Origin: an uncultured Campylobacterales bacterium
GTDB lineage: Bacteria > Campylobacterota > Campylobacteria > Campylobacterales > QNZT01
DNA: 64,000 nt
NCBI GenBank assembly: GCA_964560425.1
Contig: CAZLLE010000083.1
Location: forward strand, 51,743-115,742
Direction: 5' to 3'
Below, one piece after another: positions 6,822 to 49,673 of the stretch (the first letter of the stretch is position 1; every line of letters starts with the position of its first letter). The notes beneath the pieces were generated by a model. It was not told the DNA's origin. It did not search any database and saw only the letters and a program-made list of their open reading frames with translations. A program made the position numbers and the translations under genes.

Positions 6822-7181
6822 ATGAGAAATAAGTACATTGAAGCTTTTGAAGCAAAGCAAATAGAGGGAAAAAATATTCCTGATTTTAGAGCGGGTGATA
6901 CGCTTAGAGTTGATGTTATAATTAAAGAGGGTGATAAAACAAGAGTTCAAAAATTTGAAGGTGTTTGTATTGCTAGAAGAGGTCAAGGTACAGGTGAGAC
7001 TTTTATGATTAGAAAAATAGGTGCTAACAATGTTGGTGTTGAGAGAATTTTCCCAATTTTGAGTGATAGCATTGAGAATATTACAGTTCTTAGAAGAGGT
7101 AGAGTAAGAAGAGCTAAATTGTTCTATCTTAGAGAGCTTAAAGGTAAAGCAGCAAGAATTAAAGAACTTAAAAGAAAGTAA
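6822..7181 (+). CDS. rplS: 50S ribosomal protein L19
   Basis: The FRAGDTLRV...[12 protein letters not shown]...RRAKLFYLR pattern is typical of L19. Confidence 0.97.
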
Positions 7182-7198
7182 TCTTTTAGATCTTTTAA

Positions 7199-7233
7199 GG
7201 TTCTCTACTCTTTTGAGTAGGGAACCTTTTTTT
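7199..7233 (+). terminator. rho-independent terminator after rplS
   Basis: GGTTCTCTACTC-TTTT-GAGTAGGGAACC forms a 12-bp stem (one G-T pair) followed by T7. It lies between the convergent rplS and the minus-strand gene ending at 7245. Confidence 0.8.
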
Positions 7234-7244
7234 ATGCCTAAAAT

Positions 7245-7673
7245 TTAAATTATAAATGGGATAATCATCTTTGTAGATTTTTTATACTCATGATAAAAAT
7301 CACTATTTATATGCCACAACTTCTCCTCTTTAAAAGCTTTTATTAATACTGCAAGAGTCATAATAATTAGAAAAAGTAAATTTATCCAATTGAAATGATA
7401 AAGGACAATACCTAACATAAATAGTATTAATGAACTATACATAGGGTGTCTTATAAACTTATATGGACCAGTTATAACTAATTTTGCATTATCTTTGATC
7501 TCTGGAGTAATATTAAAATTTCCAACCTTGTTGTGTGTAAAAATCCAAAGGGCTGTGATTGAAGATATTATGATTAATATCCACCATAAATTTGTAAGAG
7601 TTATGCTTTGTTTTGGATATAAGATAACAAATATGGAAAAGAATTGTACAGATACTAAAAATTTTGAATTCAT
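7245..7673 (-). CDS. isoprenylcysteine carboxyl methyltransferase (ICMT/PEMT)-family membrane protein
   Basis: It has four hydrophobic segments and the family motif VITGPYKFIRHPMYSS. Confidence 0.7.
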   Translation of the reverse strand: MNSKFLVSVQFFSIFVILYPKQSITLTNLWWILIIISSITALWIFTHNKVGNFNITPEIKDNAKLVITGPYKFIRHPMYSSLILFMLGIVLYHFNWINLLFLIIMTLAVLIKAFKEEKLWHINSDFYHEYKKSTKMIIPFII

Positions 7674-7676
7674 ATT

Positions 7677-8129
7677 TTAATAATTTTTCATAGCACTTCT
7701 AGCATCACGATCTGCTTGTCTCTTTTTGAGTGTCTCTCGTTTATCATGAAGCTTCTTACCTTTGGCAAGTGCAATTTGTACTTTTGCCAAATTTTTGTGG
7801 TTAAAATATATACTAATTGGTACAATAGAGAGACCATCTTGTGCTACTTTGCCTATAAGTTTATCTATCTCTTTGCGATGAAGTAGAAGTTTTCTATCTC
7901 TTCTCTCATCAGGTTTGTAGAATGAGTGTGTGGTTTCAAAATATGATATATGAGCATTTAGTAAAAATGCCTCATTTTTAATGATCTTTACAAAACTATC
8001 TTTTAGATTTACTCGACCAGCTCGAAGGGCTTTTACTTCACTCCCTTTTAATGATAATCCTGCTTCAAATCTCTCTAATATCTCATAATCATGAAAAGCT
8101 TTTCTATTTTTTGCTACTGTTATACCCAT
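7677..8129 (-). CDS. smpB: SsrA-binding protein SmpB
   Basis: [13 protein letters not shown]...[13 protein letters not shown]...LLLHRKEI is the SmpB signature. Confidence 0.96.
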
Positions 8130-8138
8130 TTATATATC

Positions 8139-8909
8139 CTATCTAATTCTAAAAAATGAACTACCACTACCACTAAAAAACCAGCTATCTTTTTGATACT
8201 CTTTTAATTTAGGTTCTAAATCAAGACTAGGGGCAAATAGGTCATTTAGTGTAATACTATCATAATTTGCAAGAATATCTCTACTTGAGAGAGGGAGCAA
8301 CTCTTCTGCCAATTTTGGTTCTATTTGGGATAGATACTCTTTTCTAAATTGCTGATAAACTTTTGTGGTATCACAAGCTATTTTTGGTGTGAAGGTTTCT
8401 ATATCAATAGACTCTTCTTTGAACTCCTCTACAATCTCACCAATACCGCTTACATTTGCACTATTTGTCTCATAAATAAAAAATGATACATCAGCTCCAA
8501 TAGAACTACCGATGGATGATAGAGTCTCTTTGTCTAATCCTAAAGATAAAACTTTGTTTGTGAGTAGTAAAAATGAAGCAGCATTTGAACTACCTCCACC
8601 AAGTCCTGCAAATTCAGGAATATGTTTATTTACGACTACATCATGAGTTTCAAAAAACTCTTCTATTCTCTTCTCTTTGGTATAATTTAATAGTGCTTTA
8701 TAGGCTTTGTATATAGTATTGCTTTTGGTCTGACAACTAAAATTACCTATTAGGTTAAAAGTTTTATTGTTTGACTCTTTTTTTTTAAACTCAATTGTGT
8801 CAAATAGATTTTTGACAATAACAAACCTAGAGATAAGCTCATGATAATTATTACGAGTTCCCACAATTTTTAAAAATATATTAACTTTTGCATAAGAGAT
8901 TATTTTCAT
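8139..8909 (-). CDS. ispE: 4-(cytidine 5'-diphospho)-2-C-methyl-D-erythritol kinase
   Basis: The GHMP kinase motif reads PEFAGLGGGSSNAAS and the N-terminus is AKVNIFLKIVG. The csrA-ispE-smpB synteny matches Helicobacter. Confidence 0.9.
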   Translation of the reverse strand: MKIISYAKVNIFLKIVGTRNNYHELISRFVIVKNLFDTIEFKKKESNNKTFNLIGNFSCQTKSNTIYKAYKALLNYTKEKRIEEFFETHDVVVNKHIPEFAGLGGGSSNAASFLLLTNKVLSLGLDKETLSSIGSSIGADVSFFIYETNSANVSGIGEIVEEFKEESIDIETFTPKIACDTTKVYQQFRKEYLSQIEPKLAEELLPLSSRDILANYDSITLNDLFAPSLDLEPKLKEYQKDSWFFSGSGSSFFRIR

Positions 8910-8923
8910 TAAAAAACCTTATA

Positions 8924-9154
8924 TTATTTTTTTAGTAACTTACTAAAACTTTTAAGTTGTTCGATATTTGGTTTGAGAGAAGCTTTAGTATTTGCCTCTT
9001 TGACTTTCTCTTTTAACTCTCCTCTTAAGATAACTATATCTTTTGGGGCAGTTATTCCTATTTTTACCATTCCTTTGGTTATATTTTCGATAGATATTGT
9101 GATATCATTTCCTATATGGATCTTTTCTCCATCTTTTCTTCCTAGTATTAACAT
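8924..9154 (-). CDS. csrA: carbon storage regulator CsrA
   Basis: MLILGRKDGEKIHIG...ITISI...VKIGITAPKDIVILRGEL is the canonical CsrA fold sequence. Confidence 0.95.
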   Translation of the reverse strand: MLILGRKDGEKIHIGNDITISIENITKGMVKIGITAPKDIVILRGELKEKVKEANTKASLKPNIEQLKSFSKLLKK

Positions 9155-9981
9155 AATTTAACTCCATTTAATATATATGTTACTTTAGAATCTTCTATTT
9201 TAATAATAGAAAGTATAGTTCCTATTTTTAAAAAGTATTCACCTTCCTCTTTTATTTGAAAATTTTCAATATAGACTTTTTTGCCTAGGAGAATATCGTC
9301 ATGATCTGATAAATAGTAATTTTGTTTTACATTTAAATATTTTATTGGGTCTAATGCTATCTCTTTGTTGTAAAAAAGTTCTCCCTCATGAAGCCTCTCC
9401 AATGCACTTAAAGAGCCAAAGGTACCAAGTTTATTGGCTATTATATCTCCCATGCTTCTAATATATCCACCCTCTGAAATTGTTATTTCAAAGGTTAAAA
9501 ATGGATGATTATAATGAATAAGTTCTATTTTTGATATTGTACTTGTAATCTTTTTTAGATTGATCTCTTCATCATTTCTTGCTAGTTTATATGCTCTTTC
9601 ACCATTGATTTTTTTTGCTGAATATTTTGGTGGTAGATAGTCTATCTTCCCTTTGAGTGAATTTAGTGTTTGAATAATTTTTTCATGAGGGATATGTGGT
9701 ATCTCTTTTATTAAATCTACTTTCTCGATATCTAGTGTATCACTATGAGCTCCTAGCCAAAGTGTAGCTCTGTAGCTTTTTGGGCTTTTTTTGAGAAATC
9801 TAAAGAGCTTTGTATATTGTCCAAAAGCGATAATAAGTACACCTTTGGCAAATGGGTCTAATGTCCCTGAAAAACCAGCTTTTTTGGGCTGATAAGTTCT
9901 TTTTATTTTTGATAGATAACGGTTGGAACTCATAGATGCAGGTTTATATCCTACAAATAGTCTATTAATTGCTATTTTCAA
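9148..9981 (-). CDS. truB: tRNA pseudouridine(55) synthase TruB
   Basis: The catalytic motif is GTLDPFAKGVL. It overlaps csrA and uvrD by 7 nt and 4 nt. Confidence 0.92.
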   Translation of the reverse strand: MKIAINRLFVGYKPASMSSNRYLSKIKRTYQPKKAGFSGTLDPFAKGVLIIAFGQYTKLFRFLKKSPKSYRATLWLGAHSDTLDIEKVDLIKEIPHIPHEKIIQTLNSLKGKIDYLPPKYSAKKINGERAYKLARNDEEINLKKITSTISKIELIHYNHPFLTFEITISEGGYIRSMGDIIANKLGTFGSLSALERLHEGELFYNKEIALDPIKYLNVKQNYYLSDHDDILLGKKVYIENFQIKEEGEYFLKIGTILSIIKIEDSKVTYILNGVKLC

Positions 9982-12038
9982 ATTTTTTCTACAAATGAAG
10001 CTAGAATATCCCTCTGCTTACCACTAAAGTTTATTTTAAGCATATACTCTCTCTTGATTTTATTTACACCCAATACTCTACCAATACCAAATAGTTTATG
10101 TTTAACTAGCGTTCCTTTTTTGTAACAGGTTGTTTTTTCTAGTTTTAGTGAACCTTTGACTACTCCCGCTTCTGCTAAAAATCTACTTTGAAGTAGTCCT
10201 GCCCTTTTTCCTCTATAAAAACGACTAGCGGAGCTACTAAGGGTGAGTTCATCTTTGGCTCTTGTAAATGCAACATAAGCTAATCTTCTCTCCTCTTCTA
10301 TATCGTTTCCATCTCCAATTAGTGGGAAAAATCCCTCCTCTAATCCTATGACAAAGATATGTTCAAACTCTAATCCTTTACTAGCATGAATACTCATGAG
10401 TGAAACACTTTCATCATCAATTTGGTCTTGATCACTTCTTAGAGATATCTCATTTAGAAAAATATCTAATGAGGCATCATCATTCATCTGCATAAAATCT
10501 TTGAATAGAGCATAAAACTCCTCTATGTTTAGAACTCTCTCTAGTGAATTTGGTAAAGATTCATAATATGCTCTAATTTTGAAACTCTCTTCTAATCTAT
10601 CCATAAGTTCTGAGATTGGCTCATTATCTAAACTCTCTTTTATTTTGAGTATATTTTCACTAAATGATATGAGAGAGGTAAATGCTTTTTTTGTAATTTT
10701 ATCTTTGATTTCATCTAAGTTGTTTGTAATAAAACTAAATATTGAACAGTTTTTCTCTTTTGCTCCAAAAGATAGTTTATCTATAGTTGCTTTTCCTATC
10801 CCTCTTTTTGGTTTATTGATTACTCGCTTGATCGAAAAGTTATCATGTACATTTGAAATTAGGCGAAGATAAGAGATTATATCTTTGATCTCAGCTCTTT
10901 CGTAAAATTTTAGACCACCTACCATTTTATAGGGAATACTATTTCTATTAAATGACTCCTCCAATGATCTACTGAGTGCATTTATTCTATATATAATAGC
11001 AATCTCTTTTGGATTAACTTTCTTGGTTAAAATAAGTTTTTTTATGTGATTTGCAATAATATGAGCTTCTGCATTTTCATCTTGTGAATGGATAATTGTA
11101 ATCTCTTTACCATCCTCTTTGGTACCAATAAGCACTTTTCCTAGTCTCGTTCTATTGTGTTCTATAAGGCTATTTGCAACTTTCAGTATATTATTTGTTG
11201 ATCTATAGTTTTTTTCTAGTTTAATTGTTTTTGTATTTGGAAAGATTTGGTTAAATTCTAAAATATTTTTGATATTTGCACCACGCCAGCCATAAATACT
11301 TTGATCATCATCACCTACTACACATAGATTTTTATGAGAAGTAGTAAGTTTTTCTAAAAGTTTAAATTGTAAATCATTTGTATCTTGGTACTCATCTACC
11401 ATGATATATTGATATTTTTGGCTAATCTCTCTTGCTAAAGTAGGGTTTTGCTCTAATATTTGATAAGGCAGAGCCAATAAATCTTCAAAATCAACCAAGT
11501 TATTTTGTTTCAGATAATCATCATACTGTTTATAAATAGCTGCAATTTTCTTGTAATTTGGAAGTTGAGCCCCACTAATTGCTCTTTCGGGGGTCATGAG
11601 ATTATTTTTAAATCTAGATATTTCACTAGCTATTGTGGGTATTGGTAGATCTACATCAAAACTTTTTATAATTCTTTTTTTATCGTCACTATCAATGATT
11701 ACAAAACTATTAGATCTATTTAGATGATTTATATGATGTTTTAGAAAAAGTAGCCCAAATTTATGAAATGTACATAAAAGTGGCGTATAAGATATATCTG
11801 AATCAATCAGTGAAAGAGCACGATGTCGCATCTCATTGGCTGCTTTATTAGTAAAGGTTAAAGTTAAAATTGAAGATGGATGAATACCATTGGCAATAAG
11901 ATATGCAACTCTTGATGTGACTGTCTTTGTTTTCCCACTTCCTGCCCCTGCTAAAATAAGCACAGGTCCATCTATTGTCTGTACAGCCTCTATTTGTGGT
12001 GCATTAAGTGTGTCAAAAATAGTTGCCATCTTCTCCAT
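9978..12038 (-). CDS. uvrD: ATP-dependent DNA helicase, UvrD/PcrA family
   Basis: Motifs seen are Walker A AGAGSGKT, MVDEYQDTN, VGDDDQSIYGWRGA, NYRS and VAFTRAK. Confidence 0.93.
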   Translation of the reverse strand: MEKMATIFDTLNAPQIEAVQTIDGPVLILAGAGSGKTKTVTSRVAYLIANGIHPSSILTLTFTNKAANEMRHRALSLIDSDISYTPLLCTFHKFGLLFLKHHINHLNRSNSFVIIDSDDKKRIIKSFDVDLPIPTIASEISRFKNNLMTPERAISGAQLPNYKKIAAIYKQYDDYLKQNNLVDFEDLLALPYQILEQNPTLAREISQKYQYIMVDEYQDTNDLQFKLLEKLTTSHKNLCVVGDDDQSIYGWRGANIKNILEFNQIFPNTKTIKLEKNYRSTNNILKVANSLIEHNRTRLGKVLIGTKEDGKEITIIHSQDENAEAHIIANHIKKLILTKKVNPKEIAIIYRINALSRSLEESFNRNSIPYKMVGGLKFYERAEIKDIISYLRLISNVHDNFSIKRVINKPKRGIGKATIDKLSFGAKEKNCSIFSFITNNLDEIKDKITKKAFTSLISFSENILKIKESLDNEPISELMDRLEESFKIRAYYESLPNSLERVLNIEEFYALFKDFMQMNDDASLDIFLNEISLRSDQDQIDDESVSLMSIHASKGLEFEHIFVIGLEEGFFPLIGDGNDIEEERRLAYVAFTRAKDELTLSSSASRFYRGKRAGLLQSRFLAEAGVVKGSLKLEKTTCYKKGTLVKHKLFGIGRVLGVNKIKREYMLKINFSGKQRDILASFVEKI

Positions 12039-34408: not shown

Positions 34409-34747
34409 ATGGATTGGGGTAAAGTTGTATATATCTTTTTTGCATTGATGAGTCTTACAACTACCGCTGGGTTTTTGTATGATCATAATGTAATTGCACT
34501 ATTTATTGCTGCGAGTATAAATTTGATATCTACTTTGTTAAAAATTGGTATCAAAAATGTTTTGGCAGCAGAGTTGTTTGCAAGTTCACTTGTGGCAGAT
34601 TTACATCTAATCCCTGCTTTTTTATATGAGCAACTAGGTGGCAATACAGAAGCTGCTATGGCTATGGCAATAGGTGGGGTTATAGCAAACACCTTTTCTA
34701 TGATGCTTGTTCTTATAGAGTCTTCTAAGATACGAGAAGATTTTTGA
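34409..34747 (+). CDS. small integral membrane protein (3-4 TM), unknown function
   Basis: The 112-aa product is hydrophobic throughout. It sits downstream of secF and is followed by a strong terminator. Confidence 0.6.
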   Translation: MDWGKVVYIFFALMSLTTTAGFLYDHNVIALFIAASINLISTLLKIGIKNVLAAELFASSLVADLHLIPAFLYEQLGGNTEAAMAMAIGGVIANTFSMMLVLIESSKIREDF

Positions 34748-41432: not shown

Positions 41433-42998
41433 TTATGGAAGAATATTCTTCAAAATAAAATCCGCTACCACTCTTTGCCCCTCTCTTGAGAGATGTACAT
41501 TATACCCATCTTTTTTATACCAGTCATATGATGTCTTCTCTTGAGTTGGCATTAGAGAGTCTATTACATTAATAAGTGGTATATTTAACTCTATGGAAGT
41601 TTGGATATAGGCACTTCTTATTATTTGTGTAAAGTCATCATCGTCATATTGTCTATTTGGCATAGTTAGTACAAATATAGTCATTGGTTTATAACTTCTA
41701 ATTTTATTAATAGCAATTTCTAAATTCATTCCAATTTTATTTTGAGTGTTTGGATTCCATACATCATTAATTCCAAGAGATATATCGACAATGGTATGTT
41801 CACCATTATTAGGTATTAGATTTACTGCATCTTTCCAGTTTGGTGTAAAAATATTTCCCGCAAAATCTCTTATTGTATGTCCTGATTTTGCCACAAGGTG
41901 AGAAGAAACATTATATTTTTTTAGAGTATCTCTTAGTTGATAATATAAATATTGTCCACCATGTTGTCCATCATCTGCTCTTGTACTATCACCTACACAA
42001 ATATATGTTACATCTGTAATAATGCCATTTTTTGAATCGTTTATAAGTTCTTTAATATCTTGAAATTCACCCGTAAAAATAGGTCTTTCAATAGTTTCAA
42101 TATTGCACTCAATAGGTAATCTATCTGTTGAATCATAATTTTTCCCATTTAACTCATTTTGATATATTGTTTCTATCTCTTGTGGAGTTAGAGGACGATC
42201 AAATAGTTTTGTTTCATCTAGTATCCCAGAAAAGCCATTATCAAACTCATTCCAAATAGTACCACCTAAAATATTTGTATCCCTAGTTAGAATAGATGTG
42301 TCTATACAGCTTTGATCGAGGTGATCTGATGGATTTCCGTTGGTATCATAGGTAGGTTGTTCTATTCCATCTAAATATATTTTTGCCTCTCCACTTTTAT
42401 GATCATAAGTTGCACTATAATGGTGTAGTCCATCTTGTATAGCATCTGTCCATATTTGTGTATTACAGTTACCATTTAGAAGTTGAAAGCGTATACGATT
42501 TTTATCCCCACCTTGCCAAAATGATATAAAATCTCTAGCTTTTCCCTCTTTATCTCTTCCATTTGAAATTTCAATAAAATGTCTATCTTGATAATCTAAC
42601 TCTCCAAAATCAACCCATGAGGATAGAGTTAATCCGTTTTCAAAACTATTTTTGATTGTAGGTAATTGAATATATCCATCTTCACTAAATTGATTGGCTC
42701 TATTTAATATTGAAGTTGTAGAAAATTTTCTATTATGAGGAGTGCCATGAAGTCCATTTTGACTGCTATCTTTTATTTTGCTATTTATAGAACATTCATC
42801 AAAACGGTACTCAAATATTAAATCTGGATTAATTTTGTTTGCATATTTTGAGAAACTATTTTCTGAGTGATAAACTTTGGTATTACTATTTTGAGCTGTA
42901 GTTGTAGTTATATCTGTAGTTCCTCCACAACCACTAAATATAATAGTAGTAAATAGTATGGATAGATAGGAATTTATAGATAATAGTATTTTATTCAT
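41433..42998 (-). CDS. lipoprotein with LamG/concanavalin-like N-terminal domain and SGNH/GDSL hydrolase C-terminal domain
   Basis: The lipobox is IIFSGC. A LamG-like pattern is present (GLHGTP...GYIQLP...LTLSSWV...LDETKLFDRPLTPQEI). SGNH blocks are CVGDSTRADDG, SLGINDVW and DGYNVHLSREG. Confidence 0.7.
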   Translation of the reverse strand: MNKILLSINSYLSILFTTIIFSGCGGTTDITTTTAQNSNTKVYHSENSFSKYANKINPDLIFEYRFDECSINSKIKDSSQNGLHGTPHNRKFSTTSILNRANQFSEDGYIQLPTIKNSFENGLTLSSWVDFGELDYQDRHFIEISNGRDKEGKARDFISFWQGGDKNRIRFQLLNGNCNTQIWTDAIQDGLHHYSATYDHKSGEAKIYLDGIEQPTYDTNGNPSDHLDQSCIDTSILTRDTNILGGTIWNEFDNGFSGILDETKLFDRPLTPQEIETIYQNELNGKNYDSTDRLPIECNIETIERPIFTGEFQDIKELINDSKNGIITDVTYICVGDSTRADDGQHGGQYLYYQLRDTLKKYNVSSHLVAKSGHTIRDFAGNIFTPNWKDAVNLIPNNGEHTIVDISLGINDVWNPNTQNKIGMNLEIAINKIRSYKPMTIFVLTMPNRQYDDDDFTQIIRSAYIQTSIELNIPLINVIDSLMPTQEKTSYDWYKKDGYNVHLSREGQRVVADFILKNILP

Positions 42999-43202
42999 AA
43001 TAATAGGTTCCTTTTAGATGAGTTGGTTTAAAATTTATATGCAAAAAAAGTGAAATAATCGTGGAGTATCTATTTAAGTTTTTATATTAAAAAATATTTT
43101 ACCTTTGAATTCTTTATTTAATCTTAAAAAATAAAAAACAAAGTTTTTATAATTTTAATAAAAGTATAATATATTCAAATCTTATAAAGGAATAGTATTT
43201 AG

Positions 43203-43826
43203 ATGTCTTTTTCAAAAACTATTAATTGTCCACAATGTGGTGTTTCTTTAAATAATGTTATAAAATATACAGCTTTGATGAAATGTCCTCAATGTGGTAG
43301 TGTATTAGTTTATGAAAATGAATCTTTTCGTTCGATGGGTAAAATTGCAACACTTGCAGATGAGCCATCTTTACTTTGTTTAAATCAATCTTTTTCATAA
43401 CAAGATGTAAAATTTACTCCTATTGGAAAAGTTCGTTATAGATATGATATAGGTTTTTGGGAAGAGTGGTTTGTGATTGACTCAAAAGGAAAAGAGTTTT
43501 GGGTGAGTGTTGATGAGGGTGATTTTGCTTTTGAAGTACCTTTTGATATCAAAAAAAAATTTCCAAAAAAGAGTGAACTTAAAGTCTCTGCAACTATATT
43601 TTTTGAGGGAATTAGCTGGGTTGTATCAGAGCTTGGCGAGGGTAGTTGTGAAGGATTTGAAGGACAATTGCCAGAGATGATTAGGATTGGTGAGAAGTTT
43701 GATTATATTCACTTTACAAGCTTAAAGGGCGAAGATTTTTTGAGTGTTGAGTGTTATAAAGATGGAACGCAAAAAGCATATCGAGGATATTGGGTAGATG
43801 CATATGAGATCAAGAGGGTTTCATGA
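43203..43826 (+). pseudogene. Zn-ribbon plus DUF4178-like protein interrupted by an in-frame TAA (43398-43400)
   Basis: Track ORFs 43203-43400 and 43473-43826 share one frame. The 72 nt between them translate without further stops into QDVKFTPIGKVRYRYDIGFWEEWFV, which continues the same domain. Only a GTG start without a clear RBS is available for the second piece. Confidence 0.5.
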
Positions 43827-45043
43827 GTAATAATAAAATTAGAGTCATTAACTGTAAAAATTGTGGTGGTTCTATGGAGATGTTTATAGAGAGTAGAAAA
43901 CTACAAACTTTAACTTGCTCATATTGTGGGAGTGTTCATGATGTGCAACATGAATTTAACATACTCTATAAATATTCAAATAATCTCAAATCAAATAGCC
44001 CTATTAAACTTGGAATGAAGGGTAAAATCAAAGATGTAGAGTTTATTGTAATTGGGGAGATTTTTTATAGTGATAAACTATATCCTGAGTCAAAATTAGT
44101 AATGAGTGATTATTTGGTTGATTATCAGCTCTACTCACCCACTCATGGTTATGCTACTCTCTCTTATGAAAATGGACACTATATTTTTTCAAGAAGAGTA
44201 AGAGATATTGCTCCAAATCTACTTAATGGTATTTTTGTGGGAAATGTAGTTGTATATAGGAATATAGCTTTTAAAGTAGTAGAAATTTATCAAACTTATC
44301 TATATCAGGTAAAAGGAGCTTTGAGCTGGAGGGCAAAAAAGGGTGATAAAACAGCCGTAGTTATGGCTAGTTCACCACCATATATGATATCTTATGAGAA
44401 GAGTAGAAATGAGATAGAGTACTATTTTGAGGAGTATATTAAACCTGAGATTATTTTTGAAGGGTTTAATATCAAAAATGATCAAGAGGATCATCGTCTT
44501 GGAGTTCATAGTGCTCAACTTTTTGATTCACCTATTTTACAAGCACTCTCAAAAGTGAGTTTTATAAGCATGATTTTCTCTATATTTGTGCTTCTATTTC
44601 TATTTATATTTGGAAGTGGAAAAGAGATTTTTTTGGATAATTGGAGTGGAACCAATTTGCAAAATGCTATCTCAAAAGAGGTTAATGTGAGTAATGTTTC
44701 GCATCTATTAAATCTCCAATTAAAAAGTTCATTTAGTGGAAATAGGTGGAGTGATTATGATATTTCACTTTTACAAAATCAAAAAGTGATCAAAAATTTC
44801 TCCAATGAACTAAATATGGCTAGAAAAAAGAGTCCAAAGATAAATATATATTTTAAGCTCCCTTCAATGGGTAAATATAATCTCAAAATTGCTTCAAAAA
44901 TAACTAAGACTCCATATATTAAAGTCTCTTTGAAGCAGAATGTTTGGACTTTGAAATATTTTTTTATGCTTTTTTTGATTAGCTTTCTCTCTTATATTTT
45001 CTATCTTTTCAAAAGATATAGTTTTGAACTAAAGAGAGATTAA
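43823..45043 (+). CDS. Zn-ribbon plus DUF4178-like domain membrane protein
   Basis: The zinc ribbon is CKNCGG...CSYCGS. A DUF4178-like beta-rich core is present (LGMKGKIKDVEFIVIGEIFY...). TM segments lie near residues 240-265 and at the C-terminus. It overlaps the upstream gene by 4 nt. Confidence 0.7.
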   Translation: MSNNKIRVINCKNCGGSMEMFIESRKLQTLTCSYCGSVHDVQHEFNILYKYSNNLKSNSPIKLGMKGKIKDVEFIVIGEIFYSDKLYPESKLVMSDYLVDYQLYSPTHGYATLSYENGHYIFSRRVRDIAPNLLNGIFVGNVVVYRNIAFKVVEIYQTYLYQVKGALSWRAKKGDKTAVVMASSPPYMISYEKSRNEIEYYFEEYIKPEIIFEGFNIKNDQEDHRLGVHSAQLFDSPILQALSKVSFISMIFSIFVLLFLFIFGSGKEIFLDNWSGTNLQNAISKEVNVSNVSHLLNLQLKSSFSGNRWSDYDISLLQNQKVIKNFSNELNMARKKSPKINIYFKLPSMGKYNLKIASKITKTPYIKVSLKQNVWTLKYFFMLFLISFLSYIFYLFKRYSFELKRD

Positions 45044-45044
45044 T

Positions 45045-45215
45045 ATGATTAAAGTTTTTACATTAATATTTCTGTCTCTTACTCTTTTGGCATCATATTT
45101 AACCTATAATGATATAGCTGCTCAGGGTGTAAATGTTGAAGAGGAGAAGAGTGTGAGAAGTAGTAGCTACTCTTCGGGTGGTTTTAGTGGTGGCGGGTAT
45201 AGTTATGGGAAATAA
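45045..45215 (+). CDS. 56-aa signal/anchor peptide with Gly/Ser/Tyr-rich tail (not in ORF track)
   Basis: The product reads MIKVFTLIFLSLTLLASYLTYNDIAAQGVNVEEEKSVRSSSYSSGGFSGGGYSYGK. The ATG is 1 nt after the upstream stop and the ORF fills the otherwise empty 189-nt gap. It falls below the apparent 60-aa track cutoff. Confidence 0.5.
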   Translation: MIKVFTLIFLSLTLLASYLTYNDIAAQGVNVEEEKSVRSSSYSSGGFSGGGYSYGK

Positions 45216-45232
45216 AAACAGGAGATTTTAAA

Positions 45233-45445
45233 ATGGATGAGACAGTAATAATGCAGTTGATATCAACACTTTTATATGGGATAATTGGTTTAGTAATATT
45301 TATATTTTCACTTATTGTATTGGAGAAGATAACTCAATTCTCAATCAATAAAAAAATTGTAGAAGAGGGTAATATCGCTTTGGCAATTGTAGTAGGTTCT
45401 ATTATTATCGCTATTGGTATGATTAGTTCTTCAGCAATTCAATAA
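45233..45445 (+). CDS. DUF350 (YjfL-like) small membrane protein
   Basis: The 70-aa product has two TM helices (LLYGIIGLVIFIFSLIVL and IALAIVVGSIIIAIGMI). A GGAG RBS is present and the next gene starts at the following base. Confidence 0.65.
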   Translation: MDETVIMQLISTLLYGIIGLVIFIFSLIVLEKITQFSINKKIVEEGNIALAIVVGSIIIAIGMISSSAIQ

Positions 45446-46966
45446 GTGAAAGAGGGCAAATATTATAAAGAGAGTGCTCTTCTCTTTTCTACCTTTATTA
45501 TTGCTATTTGTGGATTAATTTATGAGCTTTTAGCAGGTACTCTATCTAGTTATCTTTTGGGAGACTCTATCTACCAATTTTCCCTAACTATTGGATTTTT
45601 TATGAGTGCAATGGGAGTTGGTGCATGGCTTAGTCGTTTTATCAAAGATGATCTTCCAAGGGCTTTTATATATATTCAAATTGCTATTGCTATTTTGGGT
45701 GGAGTTAGTGCTGAGGTTCTATTTTTTGCTTTTAGTGTTATTCATAACTACTATTTAATATTTTTTATGGTGATAATATCTCTTGGAGCGATGATTGGTA
45801 TAGAGATACCTCTTGTTATTAGAATATTAGAGAAGAGTAGTTTGCGAGAGAATCTTTCAAATGTTTTTACTGCTGATTATATCGGAGCTCTATTTGCTGC
45901 TTTGATTTTTCCTATAGTTCTATTACCAAAATTGGGCGTAATGCAGACAAGTTTTTTTGTTGGTTTTCTCAATATTTGTGTAGCTCTTTTGGCATGGTTT
46001 ATATTTGTAGAGTTGAAAAATAGATATAAAATATTATTAGCTATTATTGCTACTAATATATTACTGTTTGTAGGATTTTTTAGTGCAAATAGTGTTATGG
46101 ATTCTCTTGAGAGTAGATTATATAAGGGTAATATTATCTACACCAAAACTACTAAATATCAGAGATTAACAATTACAAAAAATAGAGATAGAGTCAGATT
46201 TTTTATAAATGGTGCATTGCAATTTGATTCAATAGATGAGTATCGCTATCATGAGATGTTGGTGCATCCTGCTATGAATAGGGCTTTAGATCGAGAGAAT
46301 ATACTTATTTTGGGTGGTGGTGATGGACTTGCTTTAAGAGAGATATTGAAATATAAAGATGTAAAAAGTGTAATCATGGTAGATTTAGATCCTGAAGTGA
46401 CTAAAATTTTTAGATCAAATCTACTTTTGACTTCACTAAATAAAAACTCTCTAAATAGTAAAAAATTGACTATAATAAACAAAGATGCATGGAAATTTTT
46501 GCAAGAGAATCAAAATTTATATGACATAATCATAATAGATTTGCCAGATCCAAACAATATAAGTCTTAGTCGTCTATATACGACAACATTTTATAATCTT
46601 GTAAAATTAAACCTATCTAAAAATGGTATATTTACAGTTCAATCTACATCACCTCTTTTTGCAAGAGAGGCTTTTTGGTCAATTTACAAGAGTGTCTCTT
46701 TTGAAGATAACGAGTTTAAAATATATCCCTATCATGTATATATTCCAAGTTTTGGAGAGTGGGGATTTATCTTGGCAAGTCGTATGAATGTAGATTTTAA
46801 TCTTTTTGATTCTAAAATAGAGAGAAGATTTATAGATCAAAATGTGATGAAAAGATCACTTCTTTTCTCTTTAGATATGAGTCAAATAGATGTAGAGCCA
46901 AATAGATTAAGTAATCATCTTTTGATTAAATATTATAATGATGGATGGGTAAAATGGTATGAGTAA
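45446..46966 (+). CDS. membrane-fused polyamine aminopropyltransferase (spermidine synthase-like)
   Basis: GTG start. About 7 N-terminal TM helices are followed by a SpeE fold with ILILGGGDGLALRE, MVDLDPEV and IIIDLPDPNN. Confidence 0.8.
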   Translation: MKEGKYYKESALLFSTFIIAICGLIYELLAGTLSSYLLGDSIYQFSLTIGFFMSAMGVGAWLSRFIKDDLPRAFIYIQIAIAILGGVSAEVLFFAFSVIHNYYLIFFMVIISLGAMIGIEIPLVIRILEKSSLRENLSNVFTADYIGALFAALIFPIVLLPKLGVMQTSFFVGFLNICVALLAWFIFVELKNRYKILLAIIATNILLFVGFFSANSVMDSLESRLYKGNIIYTKTTKYQRLTITKNRDRVRFFINGALQFDSIDEYRYHEMLVHPAMNRALDRENILILGGGDGLALREILKYKDVKSVIMVDLDPEVTKIFRSNLLLTSLNKNSLNSKKLTIINKDAWKFLQENQNLYDIIIIDLPDPNNISLSRLYTTTFYNLVKLNLSKNGIFTVQSTSPLFAREAFWSIYKSVSFEDNEFKIYPYHVYIPSFGEWGFILASRMNVDFNLFDSKIERRFIDQNVMKRSLLFSLDMSQIDVEPNRLSNHLLIKYYNDGWVKWYE

Positions 46967-46975
46967 GGGGAATAT

Positions 46976-47707
46976 ATGAAAATAGTATTATTACTTTTAA
47001 TTGGAGTGATATTGAGTGCGGGTAATATAAAAATAGCTGTGGCAGCTAATGTTAGCTATGCAATAGAGGATTTAAAGGCGGAGTTTAATACGCTTTATCC
47101 TGATATAAAAGTTCAAGTTACACTTGGAAGTAGTGGAAAATTGACAGCCCAAATCAAAAATGGAGCTCCGTATCAACTATTTATGTCTGCAAATATGAGA
47201 TATCCAAAATCTCTATATACTGATAAAATAGCCATAACAAAACCAAAAGTTTATGCACAAGGTGGACTTGCTTTTTTGAGTAGTAAAAAAAGAGATTTTT
47301 CAAAAGGGATTAATCTCTTAAAAGATAAAAAAATATCTAAAATAGCTATTGCTAATCCAAAAACAGCACCCTATGGAAAAGCAACATTAGAAGCTTTGAC
47401 AAATGCCAAAATTTATAATGATATAAAATCAAAAATTGTCTATGGTGAATCAATCTCACAAACTCTAACATTTACATTAAGGGCTACAGACATTGGAATT
47501 GTTGCAAAATCTCTACTTTTTTCACCTAGAATGGCTAAATTTAAAAAAGGTATAAATTGGAGTGAATTAGATTCTTCTCTTTATACTCCTATTAGTCAAG
47601 GGATTGTTATGCTAAAAGATAATAGAGATGTGGAGCTATTTTATAATTTTATATTGAGTCAAAAGGCAAAAAAAATCTTGAAAAATTTTGGGTATATAGT
47701 AGAGTGA
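46976..47707 (+). CDS. modA: molybdate ABC transporter substrate-binding protein
   Basis: It has a signal peptide. AANVSYA...TLGSSGKLTAQI...NPKTAPYGKA is the ModA pattern. modB and modC lie downstream. Confidence 0.9.
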   Translation: MKIVLLLLIGVILSAGNIKIAVAANVSYAIEDLKAEFNTLYPDIKVQVTLGSSGKLTAQIKNGAPYQLFMSANMRYPKSLYTDKIAITKPKVYAQGGLAFLSSKKRDFSKGINLLKDKKISKIAIANPKTAPYGKATLEALTNAKIYNDIKSKIVYGESISQTLTFTLRATDIGIVAKSLLFSPRMAKFKKGINWSELDSSLYTPISQGIVMLKDNRDVELFYNFILSQKAKKILKNFGYIVE

Positions 47708-48099
47708 ATAGTTTAATTGCTTTGGTTGTAAAAATTGATAATGTTGATAATCTTAATATTGTTGATTTTAAATTTTTGGATCAGACTCTTAGCATGATGA
47801 GCTTGGATTTGAGTGATAATATCAGAGTTGGAAGTAGGGTTGAATTAATGGCAAATCCCTCTCATGTTGCAATAGCCAAAAATTTTAGGGGAGTATTAAG
47901 CTACTCAAATCAATTAGAGGCAAAGATAAAATCATTAGAGAATGGTAAACTTTTGAGTAGTATTAAACTCTCTATTGGAAGCTCTATATTAGAATCTATT
48001 ATTACACTTCGTTCATCTAAAAAGATGAATTTAAAAGTAGGTGATGAAGTTACAGCTCTTATTAAAGCTAGTGAACTCTCTATTTTGAGGGTTTTGTAG
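47704..48099 (+). CDS. molybdopterin-binding Mop/TOBE domain protein
   Basis: The 131-aa product has two TOBE-like halves (SRVELMANPSHVAIAK and GDEVTALIKASELSI). It lies between modA and modB. Confidence 0.7.
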   Translation: MNSLIALVVKIDNVDNLNIVDFKFLDQTLSMMSLDLSDNIRVGSRVELMANPSHVAIAKNFRGVLSYSNQLEAKIKSLENGKLLSSIKLSIGSSILESIITLRSSKKMNLKVGDEVTALIKASELSILRVL

Positions 48100-48791
48100 T
48101 GTTTGAACTATTACAAAATCTTGAATTTACTCCGTTTGTATTATCTTTTAAATTGGCTTCTATTACTACTTTGATTTTGTTTATTGTCTCTCTCCCTTTG
48201 GCTTGGTATCTATCTCAAACATCTTCAAAAATCAAACCATTTTTGGAGGCTATTACAGCTTTGCCTATTGTACTTCCTCCATCAGTTTTGGGATTTTATA
48301 TTTTAGTTGCTCTTTCTCAAAATTCACCAATTGGTACTTTCTTTGATAAATATTTTGATATCAAACTTGTATTTAATTTTACAGGGCTTGTAGTTGCTAG
48401 TTGTTTTTACTCTCTTCCTTTTATGCTTCAGCCTCTTCAGAGTGGTTTTGAAAATATAAATAAAAATATGCTTGAAGCCTCTTATCTAGCGGGTAAAAGT
48501 AAATTTGTAACTATCTTTAGAGTCGCTCTTCCAAATATAAAACCAGCTCTTTTAACTGCTATCATTATAACTTTTGCACATACTGTTGGTGAGTTTGGAG
48601 TTGTTTTGATGGTTGGTGGAAGTATTCCTGAAGAGACAAAAGTGGCTTCAGTTGCAATATATGAGATGGTAGAGATTATGGATTATAGTTCCGCTCATAT
48701 CTATAGTGCTATTATGGTTATCATGAGTTTTCTTGTATTACTTATTGTATATATTTTTAATGCCAAAGAGAATAAAAAGTTTAGGGTATAA
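48099..48791 (+). CDS. modB: molybdate ABC transporter permease
   Basis: It has five TM helices and the EAA loop EASYLAGKSKFVTIFRVALP. Confidence 0.9.
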   Translation: MFELLQNLEFTPFVLSFKLASITTLILFIVSLPLAWYLSQTSSKIKPFLEAITALPIVLPPSVLGFYILVALSQNSPIGTFFDKYFDIKLVFNFTGLVVASCFYSLPFMLQPLQSGFENINKNMLEASYLAGKSKFVTIFRVALPNIKPALLTAIIITFAHTVGEFGVVLMVGGSIPEETKVASVAIYEMVEIMDYSSAHIYSAIMVIMSFLVLLIVYIFNAKENKKFRV

Positions 48792-48794
48792 GAG

Positions 48795-49673
48795 ATGTTG
48801 AAAATAGAGTTAACTAAGAGGCTTCATGGTAGTAGTGGAGAGATGAATTTGGATATTAATCTTGAAATAGATGAGAATGATTTTGTTGCTCTAAGTGGAA
48901 AAAGTGGAAGTGGAAAAACAACATTTTTAAGAATACTTGCAGGGTTGGAAGATGCAAGAGGAGAGATAAAAATAGGTGATAAAATTTGGCTAGATTCCAA
49001 GATTAATACTCCGCCTCAAAAAAGAGAGATAGGTTTTGTCTTTCAAGATTATGCACTCTTTTCAAACATGAGTGTAGAAGAGAATCTACTTTTTGTAAAT
49101 AGAGATAAAACTCTTGCTTCTCGCTTGTTGGATATTACAGAGCTTAGTGAACTAAAAAAGCGTTTCCCAAATACCCTTAGTGGAGGACAAAAACAGCGTG
49201 TTAGTTTGTGTAGGGCTTTGATGAATAGACCAAAATTGTTACTTATGGATGAGCCATTATCTGCTCTTGATCCTATGATGCGAACAAAACTTCAAAATGA
49301 GATTTTGACACTTCACTCTGAATTTGGAACAACTACTATTATGGTCAGTCATGATAGTAGTGAAATTTATAGATTGAGTAATAGAGTATTGATCTTAAAT
49401 CAAGGAAAAATTATTGATGATGGTCTTGCAAAAGATGTTTTACTAAAGACAACAGGCTCTCAAAAATTCTCTTTTGAGGGTGAATTGCTAGATATTATCA
49501 AAGTAGATGTGATCTATATAGCAATTATATCTATAGCTCAACAGTTAGTTGAAGTTGTAGTTACTTCCAAAGAGGCTCAAAATTTGACTATTGGTGAAGT
49601 GGTGAATGTTAGTACAAAAGCTTTTAGTCCGACCATCTCTTCAAAGGGGAAAAGTTTTCCCCCCTTAAAGTGA
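48795..49673 (+). CDS. modC: molybdate ABC transporter ATP-binding protein
   Basis: Motifs are Walker A GKSGSGKTT, signature LSGGQKQRV and Walker B LLLMDEP. A short TOBE-like tail is present. Confidence 0.88.
   Translation: MLKIELTKRLHGSSGEMNLDINLEIDENDFVALSGKSGSGKTTFLRILAGLEDARGEIKIGDKIWLDSKINTPPQKREIGFVFQDYALFSNMSVEENLLFVNRDKTLASRLLDITELSELKKRFPNTLSGGQKQRVSLCRALMNRPKLLLMDEPLSALDPMMRTKLQNEILTLHSEFGTTTIMVSHDSSEIYRLSNRVLILNQGKIIDDGLAKDVLLKTTGSQKFSFEGELLDIIKVDVIYIAIISIAQQLVEVVVTSKEAQNLTIGEVVNVSTKAFSPTISSKGKSFPPLK

Follow-up and report, generated by a model that had tools for sequence, protein, structure and literature searches.

A minimal five-gene operon encoding a membrane-fused aminopropyltransferase homologue, and its relation to known envelope operons

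Introduction

Gene clusters composed of AdoMetDC, a fused MFS/SpdSyn protein and DUF350 were reportedly described in 2019 by Li, Kurihara, Kim, Liang and Michael. The fusions are said to leave an E. coli speE mutant uncomplemented and to occur in species without spermidine, and a non-putrescine acceptor was reportedly proposed. An operon of the type examined here has been described by Ravi et al. (2024, mSystems, PMC11237479), who cite Li et al. (2019), place operons of 7TM-spermine/spermidine synthases in a second CesT/Tir-PspA group exemplified by Shewanella oneidensis AAN56744-AAN56747, propose the aminopropylation of other substrates, and raise the possibility that these systems keep track of polyamine concentration. 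In E. coli, YjfC is annotated as a peptide--spermidine ligase, and its operon also holds DUF350 (Pederick et al., 2023, cited in the annotation). Here, an operon within a 64-kb window (the whole stretch of DNA that was analysed) is compared with these systems and with 86 loci surveyed in 80 genomes from at least eight phyla.

Organization of the operon

Inspection of the open reading frames revealed five co-directional, almost abutting genes on the plus strand of the window at 43203-46966 (Table 1). Coordinates and junctions are all as an earlier, sequence-only reading of this DNA had described them: genes 1 and 2 share an ATGA overlap at 43823-43826, genes 2 and 3 meet with a 1-nt gap in TAA-T-ATG (45041-45047), genes 3 and 4 are separated by 17 nt with an AGGAG ribosome-binding site ahead of 45233, and the GTG of gene 5 immediately follows the TAA of gene 4 (45443-45448). 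Together they make up a single, tightly coupled unit. The promoter candidate listed in Table 1 is the best sigma-70-like match in the 204-nt intergenic region 5' of gene 1, a region in which promoter-like sites are no more numerous than in shuffled sequence, and an Rfam search of 42800-47200 returned no element.

Table 1. Features of the operon in the 64-kb window
Feature	Position	Strand	Details and evidence
Sigma-70-like promoter candidate, TTAAAA-18-TATAAT	43124..43153	+	10/12 positions matched; weak evidence
Gene 1, Zn-ribbon + DUF4178, short paralogue	43203..43826	+	207 codons, stop at codon 66; Pfam
In-frame TAA in gene 1	43398..43400	+	comparison with three relatives
Gene 2, long Zn-ribbon + DUF4178 paralogue, 406 aa	43823..45043	+	Pfam, homologues, AF2
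Gene 3, microprotein, 56 aa	45045..45215	+	syntenic small ORF in nearly all loci
Gene 4, DUF350 (YjfL family), 70 aa	45233..45445	+	Pfam, reciprocal YjfL match
Gene 5, membrane-fused polyamine aminopropyltransferase, 506 aa	45446..46966	+	NCBIfam, Pfam, AF2

Pfam searches place a LamG/GDSL protein gene on one side of the operon and modA, which starts at 46976, 9 nt past gene 5, on the other. While the operon does lie directly upstream of a molybdate transporter, as had been pointed out, this adjacency to modABC is incidental; in the relative L003 a Cas6-like gene follows the operon in its place.

The first Zn-ribbon/DUF4178 gene had been read as interrupted. The stop is indeed present, but the segments 43203-43400 and 43473-43826 belong to a single 207-codon frame with one in-frame TAA, which differs from TAT (Tyr66) only by a T->A substitution at position 43400. 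TAT occupies this position in L005, a 99.9%-identical ENA contig, and in L001 and L003 (83% identity), the gene being intact at 207 aa in all three, so the stop is either an SNP at the strain level or an error in the consensus, and gene 1 is not an old pseudogene. The other seven differences between the window and L005 comprise five synonymous and two missense changes. With gene 1 interrupted in the window, this strain may have a module of impaired function.

The DUF4178, DUF350 and microprotein components

HMM searches confirmed every DUF4178, DUF350 and SpeE domain call that had been made from the sequence. Gene 1 matches the Pfam DUF4178 profile over 43473-43826 at 34.9 bits (GA 25), and gene 2 alone reaches 22.7 bits, slightly below the same GA; PF13785 is carried by 22 gene 2 homologues of 26-85% identity, and both paralogues are recovered by a single iterated HMM. 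Both proteins carry a Zn ribbon, and its four Cys in gene 2 (C11, C14, C32 and C35) are invariant among homologues. In gene 2 the ribbon is followed by a beta-rich DUF4178 region to approximately residue 206, a TM segment at 237-263, a beta-sandwich at 267-374 with a predicted position external to the cytoplasmic membrane, and a second TM segment at 378-405. Foldseek searches with the AF2 model of this protein (mean pLDDT 87.9) gave generic beta-sandwich local matches only. As the short and long forms are fused in some lineages (ORFs of ~630-830 aa in L043, L048, L054, L058, L063, L074 and L080), the pair probably functions as a single complex.

Gene 4 matches DUF350 (PF03994) in Pfam at 42.7 bits (GA 26, 7.1e-11), the match spanning positions 5-65 of the 133-position profile, or one half of its two repeats; the protein is a minimal DUF350, made up of a single repeat with a pair of TM helices. 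A DUF350 HMM built in this work finds E. coli YjfL at 1.6e-12. DUF350 is present in 76 of the 86 loci, immediately 5' of the SpeE fusion.

The 56-aa ORF between genes 2 and 4 is, to judge from comparison across loci, a real and conserved gene, a small ORF being syntenic at this position in nearly all of them. Its product consists of an N-terminal signal-anchor, an S-V-R motif, a Gly/Ser/Tyr-rich tail, which most likely lies outside the membrane, and a final Lys. The microprotein has no match in Pfam or NCBIfam and no lipobox Cys, and sequence searches detect no homology with E. coli YjfM. A C-terminal Lys is found in 59 of 67 loci (GK in 35, HK in 16, VK in 5 and IK in 3), compared with 5.5% of background small ORFs, and the longer secreted or lipoprotein versions in Bacillota loci keep the same GGGxSFGK end. 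The Lys-terminated microprotein is a new lead.

The membrane-fused aminopropyltransferase

Gene 5 scores 607.6 bits against NCBIfam NF002956 (PRK03612; cut-off 472) over residues 7-504, 56.4 bits against NF037959 (cut-off 40) and 136.8 bits (8.3e-40) against Pfam Spermine_synth, and falls below the cut-off of the canonical speE model TIGR00417 (146.1 bits, cut-off 249.55). By these profiles it is a member of the PRK03612/COG4262-type membrane-fused aminopropyltransferase family, which also includes Rv2601 of Mycobacterium tuberculosis. Proteins of this type are very abundant: gene 5 finds at least 7,991 clusters (90% identity) with E<=1e-20, and its membrane domain on its own finds about 2,465 (50% identity).

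The protein comprises a helical membrane part (residues 1 to ~226) and an aminopropyltransferase (PABS) fold (~229-506), the latter with the motifs GGGDG (D293), D313/D315, D347 and D365-L-P-D368-P. Twelve residues (Q239, D264, E265, Y268, H269, E270, D293, D313, D315, D347, D365 and D368) show no variation in 82 of 82 homologues, and gene 5 has kept all the residues with which aminopropyltransferases bind decarboxylated AdoMet and take a proton from the attacking amine. The AF2 model has a mean pLDDT of 91.1. PDB matches cover only residues ~209-474, and the ~226 N-terminal membrane residues have no solved relative. The best solved relative is the thermospermine synthase 6bq2 (1.5e-35), and the long-polyamine enzymes of Thermus and Pyrobaculum likewise rank above ordinary spermidine synthases (~1e-24). 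With thermospermine and long-polyamine synthases nearest to it among solved structures, gene 5 probably acts on an amine larger than putrescine as acceptor.

The membrane topology depends upon the method used. The count of about seven TM helices proposed from the sequence agrees with the seven hydrophobic segments seen in hydropathy analysis but not with the AF2 model, which has six helices within residues 2-226. Hydropathy and the positive-inside rule place the catalytic domain outside the membrane, whereas the AF2 helix count and the predominance of single Cys in the domain place it inside.

Distribution and neighbouring genes

The order short DUF4178, long DUF4178, small ORF, DUF350 and SpeE fusion is conserved across the 80 genomes and at least eight phyla, with DUF4178 in 77 of the 86 surveyed loci. 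Together with Ravi et al. (2024, PMC11237479), the survey bears out the proposal that DUF4178, DUF350 and membrane-fused SpeE recur as neighbours, sometimes accompanied by AdoMetDC or PspA. Further genes join this core: AdoMet_dc is adjacent in 24 loci, mostly of Bacteroidota and Acidobacteriota, an FAD amine oxidase with an RR Tat-type N-terminus is found in 27, and Band_7_1 with a Zn ribbon in 13. HMM searches in all six frames of the 64-kb window, with small ORFs checked, found no AdoMet decarboxylase, and neither an amine oxidase nor a Band-7 protein is present there. A phmmer search with E. coli YjfJ, a single-sequence approach of limited sensitivity, detected PspA neither in the window nor in the 86 loci. 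In these searches, the reported absence of an adjacent AdoMet decarboxylase or PspA extends to the whole 64 kb. In a few loci (L018, L021 and L022) TM-SpeE occurs without adjacent DUF4178 or DUF350, which suggests that these partners may not be obligatory.

Proposed function and alternative explanations

With moderate confidence, we regard the five genes as the minimal core of a known and very widespread envelope operon that acts in aminopropyl transfer to a non-putrescine amine at the membrane. Gene 5 would take the aminopropyl group from decarboxylated AdoMet, a donor that would be supplied by a SpeD encoded elsewhere in the genome (in other phyla, inside the operon), and would transfer it at the cytoplasmic membrane to an amine other than putrescine, probably a larger or multiply charged one. 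The product would then be passed to, or act on, the membrane's outer face, where three components would be found: the tail of the microprotein, the gene 2 beta-sandwich and the amine oxidase that other taxa export. The sequence-only proposal of a membrane-associated aminopropyl-transfer module is supported by this analysis, and the literature reaches the same conclusion.

It is rather unlikely, by comparison, that gene 5 is an ordinary free-polyamine synthase that is merely anchored in the membrane, perhaps coupled to export, with accessory or unrelated neighbours, and that its product is spermidine or a thermospermine/spermine-type tetraamine made from spermidine or norspermidine. The canonical fold and catalytic residues, and the thermospermine and triamine-accepting enzymes among the best PDB relatives, are consistent with such a synthase, and the amine oxidase linked in 27 loci would suit polyamine turnover; yet the canonical speE model is missed, the arrangement with four non-polyamine genes persists from phylum to phylum, and the fusions studied in 2019 reportedly neither complement speE nor come from hosts with spermidine. 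In favour of a free-polyamine synthase, a carboxynorspermidine-decarboxylase-like gene (TIGR01047, 299 bits, below cut-off) accompanies the operon in four Campylobacterota loci, adjoining the SpeE fusion in L007, L013 and L014 and lying inside the cluster in L015, but this nspC-like gene is absent from the 64-kb window.

The cross-phylum comparison makes the microprotein, at ~50 residues, a candidate substrate in its own right. The acceptor would then be the epsilon-amine of its C-terminal Lys, and the product a polyamine-like tag on a membrane-anchored peptide. Though distinctly doubtful, such protein modification would account for the synteny of the microprotein, the excess of Lys ends over background and the retention of GGGxSFGK in Bacillota; it finds a parallel in the peptide-spermidine ligases YjfC and YgiC of related E. 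coli DUF350 operons, and with the seven-segment topology, if correct, the enzyme domain and the microprotein tail would face the same compartment. Against this, the enzyme depends on decarboxylated AdoMet from the cytoplasm whereas the tail most likely lies outside the membrane, a cytoplasmic location of the enzyme domain is favoured by the number of helices in the AF2 model and by the single-Cys pattern, no homology to YjfM is detectable, and a literature search found no report of aminopropyl-lysine. The C-terminal Lys could instead serve partner recognition or peptidoglycan attachment, as it does in Braun's lipoprotein. An equally improbable elaboration is that a ribosomal peptide is the long-sought acceptor for membrane-fused aminopropyltransferases, with the Lys aminopropylated at the envelope, that the ATP-grasp enzymes YjfC and YgiC reach a similar product through different chemistry, and that the exported amine oxidase remodels or removes the tag. 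If the acceptor were a protein lysine, the post-translational modification would be a new one for bacteria, and decarboxylated AdoMet would have a new use.

Finally, a sensor without turnover, in which the SpeE-like domain binds polyamine or decarboxylated AdoMet and signals membrane or polyamine status to DUF4178 and DUF350, would accord with the monitoring role suggested by Ravi et al. (PMC11237479) but is very improbable, given that neither the catalytic Asp residues nor any part of the cofactor pocket varies among 82 homologues of at least eight phyla, as expected of a working enzyme, and that AdoMet decarboxylase is co-encoded in 24 loci.

Comparison with known systems

The preferred reading, aminopropyl transfer to a non-putrescine amine at the membrane, can be set against several described systems. 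The soluble aminopropyltransferases ACL5 (6bq2), Thermus thermophilus SpeE (1uir, 3anx) and Thermotoga SpeE (1inl, 1jq3) share the fold and the cofactor and catalytic residues of gene 5 (TM-score 0.75-0.80 to the targets, rmsd 2.0-2.8 A), but they stand alone, whereas gene 5 adds ~226 N-terminal membrane residues. PA4773/PA4774 of P. aeruginosa, also brought into the earlier reading, we take to be a surface-spermidine system, a soluble SpeD/SpeE paralogue pair controlled by PmrAB and outside the fused family; as PA4774 lacks a membrane domain, the pair is an analogy at best.

Operons with DUF350 offer closer parallels. Like the operon in the window, E. coli yjfIJKLMC and tolC-ygiBC encode a polyamine-handling enzyme together with DUF350 (YjfL) and an exported protein whose tail is rich in Gly and Ser (YjfM); however, YjfC and YgiC are ATP-grasp ligases rather than aminopropyltransferases, their operons lack DUF4178, and YjfM ends in Gly-Gly whereas the microprotein ends in Lys. 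The clusters attributed to Li and colleagues share the fusion type (NF037959 match) and the DUF350 neighbour, but contain the AdoMetDC that the window lacks throughout its 64 kb.

The PspA-linked operon of Ravi et al. (2024) resembles the window in its membrane-fused SpeE-like enzyme, DUF350, beta-rich DUF4178 and intervening small exported or lipoprotein partner. Four differences can be noted. Firstly, it includes a CesT/Tir-PspA pair, whereas the operon in the window is flanked by the LamG/GDSL gene and modA. Secondly, its DUF350 is an 8-TM form as opposed to the 2-TM single repeat of gene 4. Thirdly, the window has two DUF4178 paralogues, one of them membrane-spanning. Lastly, its small partner is a lipoprotein (Ctha_1186 domain), while the anchored protein at the equivalent position in the window has no lipobox Cys. 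Taken together, the operon type is already published, and the window, which clearly displays its minimal conserved core, presents not a new kind of system but a further member of a known one.

Organization and conservation of the cluster

The five ORFs at 43203-46966 of the window, all called in one direction, form the reduced core of a widespread operon already described in the literature. A survey of one genome per species recovered 80 loci with full-length SpeE fusions at 42-57% identity, and covered Campylobacterota, Gamma- and Alphaproteobacteria, Acidobacteriota, Bacteroidota, Bacillota, Leptospira, Chloroflexota and Gemmatimonadota. When ORFs were called in the comparison loci and searched with iterated HMMs seeded from the window proteins, DUF4178 was found in 77/86 loci, typically as a pair of ~205 and ~430 aa, and DUF350 in 76/86, with the order short DUF4178, long DUF4178, small ORF, DUF350, SpeE fusion being near-universal. 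The remaining neighbours were clustered and representatives scanned with profiles, which identified a 120-aa AdoMet decarboxylase immediately upstream in 24 loci, a ~541-aa FAD amine oxidase immediately downstream in 27, a Band_7_1 and Zn-ribbon protein in 13, an unannotated multi-TM protein in 12 and, in Bacillota loci, linked K+ channels. These counts bear out the sequence-only reading, which had held that DUF4178, DUF350 and membrane-fused SpeE genes recur as neighbours, sometimes with AdoMet decarboxylase. Most linked amine oxidases carry an N-terminal RR-x-F/L twin-arginine motif, and some a lipobox, features which suggest that these enzymes are probably exported.

Several loci depart from the common arrangement. 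A carboxynorspermidine-decarboxylase-like PLP enzyme adjoins the SpeE fusion in L007, L013 and L014 and lies within the cluster in L015, all from Campylobacterota; in L015, a MAG, the order (8148-11509 and the next genes) is DUF350, SpeE fusion, nspC-like PLP decarboxylase, short DUF4178, long DUF4178, microprotein, and a 229-aa ORF just upstream encodes a putative MTA/SAH-nucleosidase-like protein. The SpeE fusions of three Thiotrichales-type loci (L018, L021, L022) have no adjacent DUF4178, microprotein or DUF350 gene, and large unrelated proteins are encoded upstream in L018 (810 aa) and L021 (1024 aa); genes for these partners may lie elsewhere, or the fusion may not require them. A contig labelled Candidatus Saccharimonadales (L077, DATMNZ010000064.1) has an entire Acidobacteriota-like cluster with its amine oxidase, which would be surprising in a reduced CPR genome and may reflect a binning error.

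Within the window, HMM searches of the six-frame translation found no AdoMet decarboxylase, amine oxidase, Band_7_1 or other linked family, the small ORFs encoding ribosomal protein L19, SmpB, ClpS and similar proteins. A single-sequence search with E. coli YjfJ, limited in sensitivity, detected no YjfJ/PspA-like protein in either the window or the comparison loci. The reported lack of an adjacent AdoMet decarboxylase or PspA thus extends across all 64 kb. The junctions first read between the co-directional ORFs match exactly on inspection of the sequence.

Gene junctions in the window and modelled features of the long DUF4178 protein
Feature	Position	Strand	Detail
Gene 1/gene 2 junction	43823-43826	+	ATGA, start overlapping stop
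Gene 2/microprotein junction	45041-45047	+	TAA-T-ATG
Microprotein/DUF350 junction	before 45233	+	17-nt spacer with AGGAG
DUF350/SpeE-fusion junction	45443-45448	+	GTG directly after TAA
SpeE fusion/modA spacing	modA start 46976	+	9 nt
Four-Cys Zn ribbon, then beta-rich domain	to ~residue 206		model
TM helix 1	residues 237-263		model
Beta-sandwich	residues 267-374		model
TM helix 2	residues 378-405		model

The cluster does lie directly upstream of a molybdate transporter, as originally noted, modA following after 9 nt. A complete uptake set occupies 46976-49673 (+), comprising a modA-like binding protein, TOBE protein, permease and ATPase; no terminator intervenes, and co-transcription may occur. 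As the gene downstream of the cluster is modA in one 83%-identity relative (L001) and Cas6-like in another (L003), a functional link to the modABC position was rejected and the transporter is regarded as an incidental neighbour. Upstream, the 521-aa product of a divergent gene (41433-42998, -) combines a lipoprotein-like leader (…FSGCGG) with LamG/concanavalin-like and GDSL lipase/acylhydrolase domains, and the gene keeps this position in the 83%-identity relatives. Genes unrelated to the cluster include those for a 142-aa PEMT/ICMT-type membrane methyltransferase (7245-7673, -) and a DUF6394 protein (34409-34747, +). No RNA element, riboswitches included, was detected in the cluster or upstream of it, and the promoter and terminator scan was uninformative in this AT-rich DNA (window G+C ~30%), site counts equalling those of shuffles.

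DUF4178 and DUF350 proteins

The first gene is interrupted, as described earlier, by a single in-frame TAA at 43398-43400, the sole obstacle between ORFs 43203-43400 and 43473-43826 of one shared frame. A near-identical contig (L005; ENA ERZ27262694 k141_581221), with 8 differences in 10.5 kb, has TAT (Tyr) at this site, as do two relatives that share 83% identity in the SpeE fusion, and the 207-aa gene is intact in all three. Of the seven remaining differences between the window and L005, five are synonymous and two missense, a pattern that resembles true strain variation. Together these comparisons indicate that the stop is a recent nonsense SNP or consensus error, not the mark of an ancient pseudogene.

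Profile searches upheld the domain assignments, with DUF350 and Spermine_synth both matched and 43473-43826 scoring above GA for DUF4178 (Pfam, 34.9 bits; GA 25). The 406-aa second protein, previously read as a Zn-ribbon and DUF4178-like protein with TM segments, matches DUF4178 at 22.7 bits, slightly under GA, and its model (mean pLDDT 87.9) contains the four-Cys ribbon and two TM helices. The window paralogues have only the Zn ribbon and domain start in common (31% identity over 77 aa). Invariant residues among homologues of the long protein include D40, S105, G109, R127, G165, E197 and E199. Foldseek provided no functional lead for this protein, returning only generic beta-sandwich local matches (GOLD, CBM, subtilase C-domain) with query-normalised TM-scores <=0.20. 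Judged by identity among homologues outside the closest group (26-42% versus 53-59%), the long DUF4178 protein evolves much faster than the enzyme. Short and long DUF4178 proteins appear to form a single ORF of ~630-830 aa, upstream of DUF350, in seven loci from Acidobacteriota, Gemmatimonadota, Leptospira and Bacteroidota (L043, L048, L054, L058, L063, L074, L080), which argues that the two work together. The 70-aa protein matches DUF350 (Pfam, 42.7 bits) at profile positions 5-65 of 133 only, and thus constitutes a single two-helix repeat, in keeping with its earlier description as a two-TM DUF350-like protein.

The membrane-fused aminopropyltransferase

The 506-aa protein had been read as a membrane protein fused to a SpeE fold, and it exceeds the cut-offs for the NCBIfam equivalog NF002956/PRK03612, "polyamine aminopropyltransferase" (607.6 bits versus 472), and for NF037959, "fused MFS/spermidine synthase" (56 versus 40), while residues 266-447 match Spermine_synth (Pfam, 136.8 bits). 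A search with the fusion matched at least 7,991 cluster representatives (E<=1e-20); its best homologues carry the names Sulfurovum, Campylobacterota or Campylobacterales. The membrane domain alone retrieves 2,465 representatives at 50% clustering, the top matches being of full-fusion length (~500-560 aa) or shorter and presumably partial. Neither a PDB sequence search nor Foldseek of the full model, which matched the soluble domain only, found a solved structure over the membrane domain, and a literature search found no published function for Rv2601/COG4262.

Twelve residues are 100% conserved in 82 homologues from the comparison loci: Q239, D264, E265, Y268, H269, E270, D293, D313, D315, D347, D365 and D368. 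D293 is the Asp of GGGDG, which in aminopropyltransferases keeps out the AdoMet carboxylate. The AlphaFold2 model is of high confidence (mean pLDDT 91.1), and its C-terminal domain aligns with known aminopropyltransferase structures (TM-score 0.75-0.80, rmsd 2.0-2.8 A). The closest solved protein by sequence is thermospermine synthase 6bq2 (1.5e-35), followed by Pyrobaculum and Thermus enzymes with triamine or agmatine acceptors (~1e-29 to 1e-30) and typical spermidine synthases (~1e-24). Residue invariance and closest solved relatives fit a predicted active enzyme whose acceptor would be larger than putrescine. The protein falls below the cut-off of the canonical speE model TIGR00417 (146 bits versus 249.55), and that it is a plain polyamine synthase, anchored in the membrane, is unlikely.

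The conserved catalytic residues and NF002956 match support the original proposal of a membrane-associated aminopropyl-transfer module of unknown purpose. On balance, sequence and model make it probable that the SpeE fusion would take an aminopropyl group from decarboxylated AdoMet and place it on a non-putrescine amine at the membrane, the product being used on the outer side of the cytoplasmic membrane.

Sidedness of the catalytic domain

Hydropathy gives the SpeE fusion seven hydrophobic segments, and mean Lys+Arg across the 82 homologues is 8.4 for the N-terminus and alternate loops versus 0.6 for the opposite side; seven passes with this charge bias would leave the catalytic domain on the outer side of the cytoplasmic membrane. 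DSSP assignment of the AF2 model, however, yields six helices, with residues 133-186 unbroken, and if this helix crosses once the domain would be cytoplasmic and the charge bias still acceptable. The earlier count of about seven TM helices consequently holds by hydropathy but not in the model. The catalytic domain contains one Cys in 49 homologues, none in 23 and two in 10; odd Cys counts are commoner in cytoplasmic than in exported domains. The decarboxylase has no apparent signal peptide, its product being made in the cytoplasm, and an external catalytic domain in monoderm Bacillota would mean loss of decarboxylated AdoMet. The single-Cys pattern and the need for this cofactor favour a cytoplasmic catalytic domain, which we consider likely. 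Direct-coupling analysis of the membrane domain (297 sequences, Meff 162), addressing a possible hairpin at residues 145-190, gave one strong coupling, 69-194, a gap artefact, and otherwise noise. Long N- and C-terminal extensions of homologues contained no compartment-specific domains, only disordered N-terminal tails.

The lysine-tailed microprotein

Nearly every locus encodes a protein of 49-74 aa between long DUF4178 and DUF350, which neither Pfam nor NCBIfam recognises. Consistent with the earlier description of a 56-aa anchor peptide with a G/S/Y tail, this conserved product begins with Lys/Arg, continues as a hydrophobic helix and ends in a Gly/Ser/Tyr/Arg-rich tail; an S/T-V/I-R motif lies 17-33 residues before the end in 35/56 unique sequences. 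Charges flanking the helix (N-side +1.0, C-side -0.8) suggest a cytoplasmic N-terminus and an external tail. Three Bacillota loci encode at this position proteins of 189-257 aa with signal or lipoprotein leaders and a ...GGGxSFGK end, and position and C-terminal motif are the basis for their putative homology to the short forms.

The most interesting new detail is the invariant terminal Lys. It is present in 59/67 ORFs picked (GK 35, HK 16, VK 5, IK 3), the other eight resembling mis-picks, against a background of 5.5% of 4,307 small ORFs from the same loci. The outward-facing beta-sandwich of long DUF4178 might recognise this residue; alternatively, by analogy with Braun's lipoprotein, which is joined to peptidoglycan through its terminal Lys, the residue could be an attachment point. 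It could also be the aminopropyl acceptor, an explanation favoured by the enrichment over background; a literature search, however, found no report of aminopropyl-lysine, and we consider this reading doubtful. The microprotein is nonetheless a testable candidate substrate, and interest in the system rests mainly on it and on the sidedness of the catalytic domain.

Comparison with known systems

Li and colleagues reportedly found AdoMet decarboxylases co-occurring with MFS-SpdSyn fusions and DUF350, no spermidine in the host species, and no complementation of an E. coli speE mutant by the fusion. PspA-less operon variants containing AdoMet decarboxylase, polyamine oxidase, Band-7 and K+ channel genes have been described, and are proposed to monitor polyamines or aminopropylate other substrates (Ravi et al., 2024, PMC11237479, citing Li et al., 2019, Biochem J). 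A sensor without catalysis is very improbable given the invariant catalytic residues. Literature searches found no functional studies of DUF4178 or DUF350; the window cluster is thus a minimal-form member of an operon type that has been described but not characterised.

The E. coli yjf operon (L087) likewise encodes a DUF350 protein, YjfL, and an exported Gly/Ser-tailed protein, YjfM, beside YjfC (7529-8692), named peptide--spermidine ligase in RefSeq. This activity has been shown for YjfC and YgiC, with physiological substrate unknown (Pederick et al., 2023). YjfM (6888-7526) has a C-terminal Gly/Ser/Arg-rich tail sharing the heptapeptide SYSSGGF with the window microprotein, but ends in Gly-Gly rather than Lys; homology through this heptapeptide was rejected as low-complexity resemblance, the microprotein HMM failing to detect YjfM. 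While that failure weighs against aminopropylation of the microprotein's Lys, a peptide--spermidine ligase in a DUF350 operon would, by analogy, weigh in its favour. The ligase activity of YjfC and YgiC, together with DUF350 in the yjf operon, makes peptide-polyamine conjugates a plausible idea for operons that contain DUF350.
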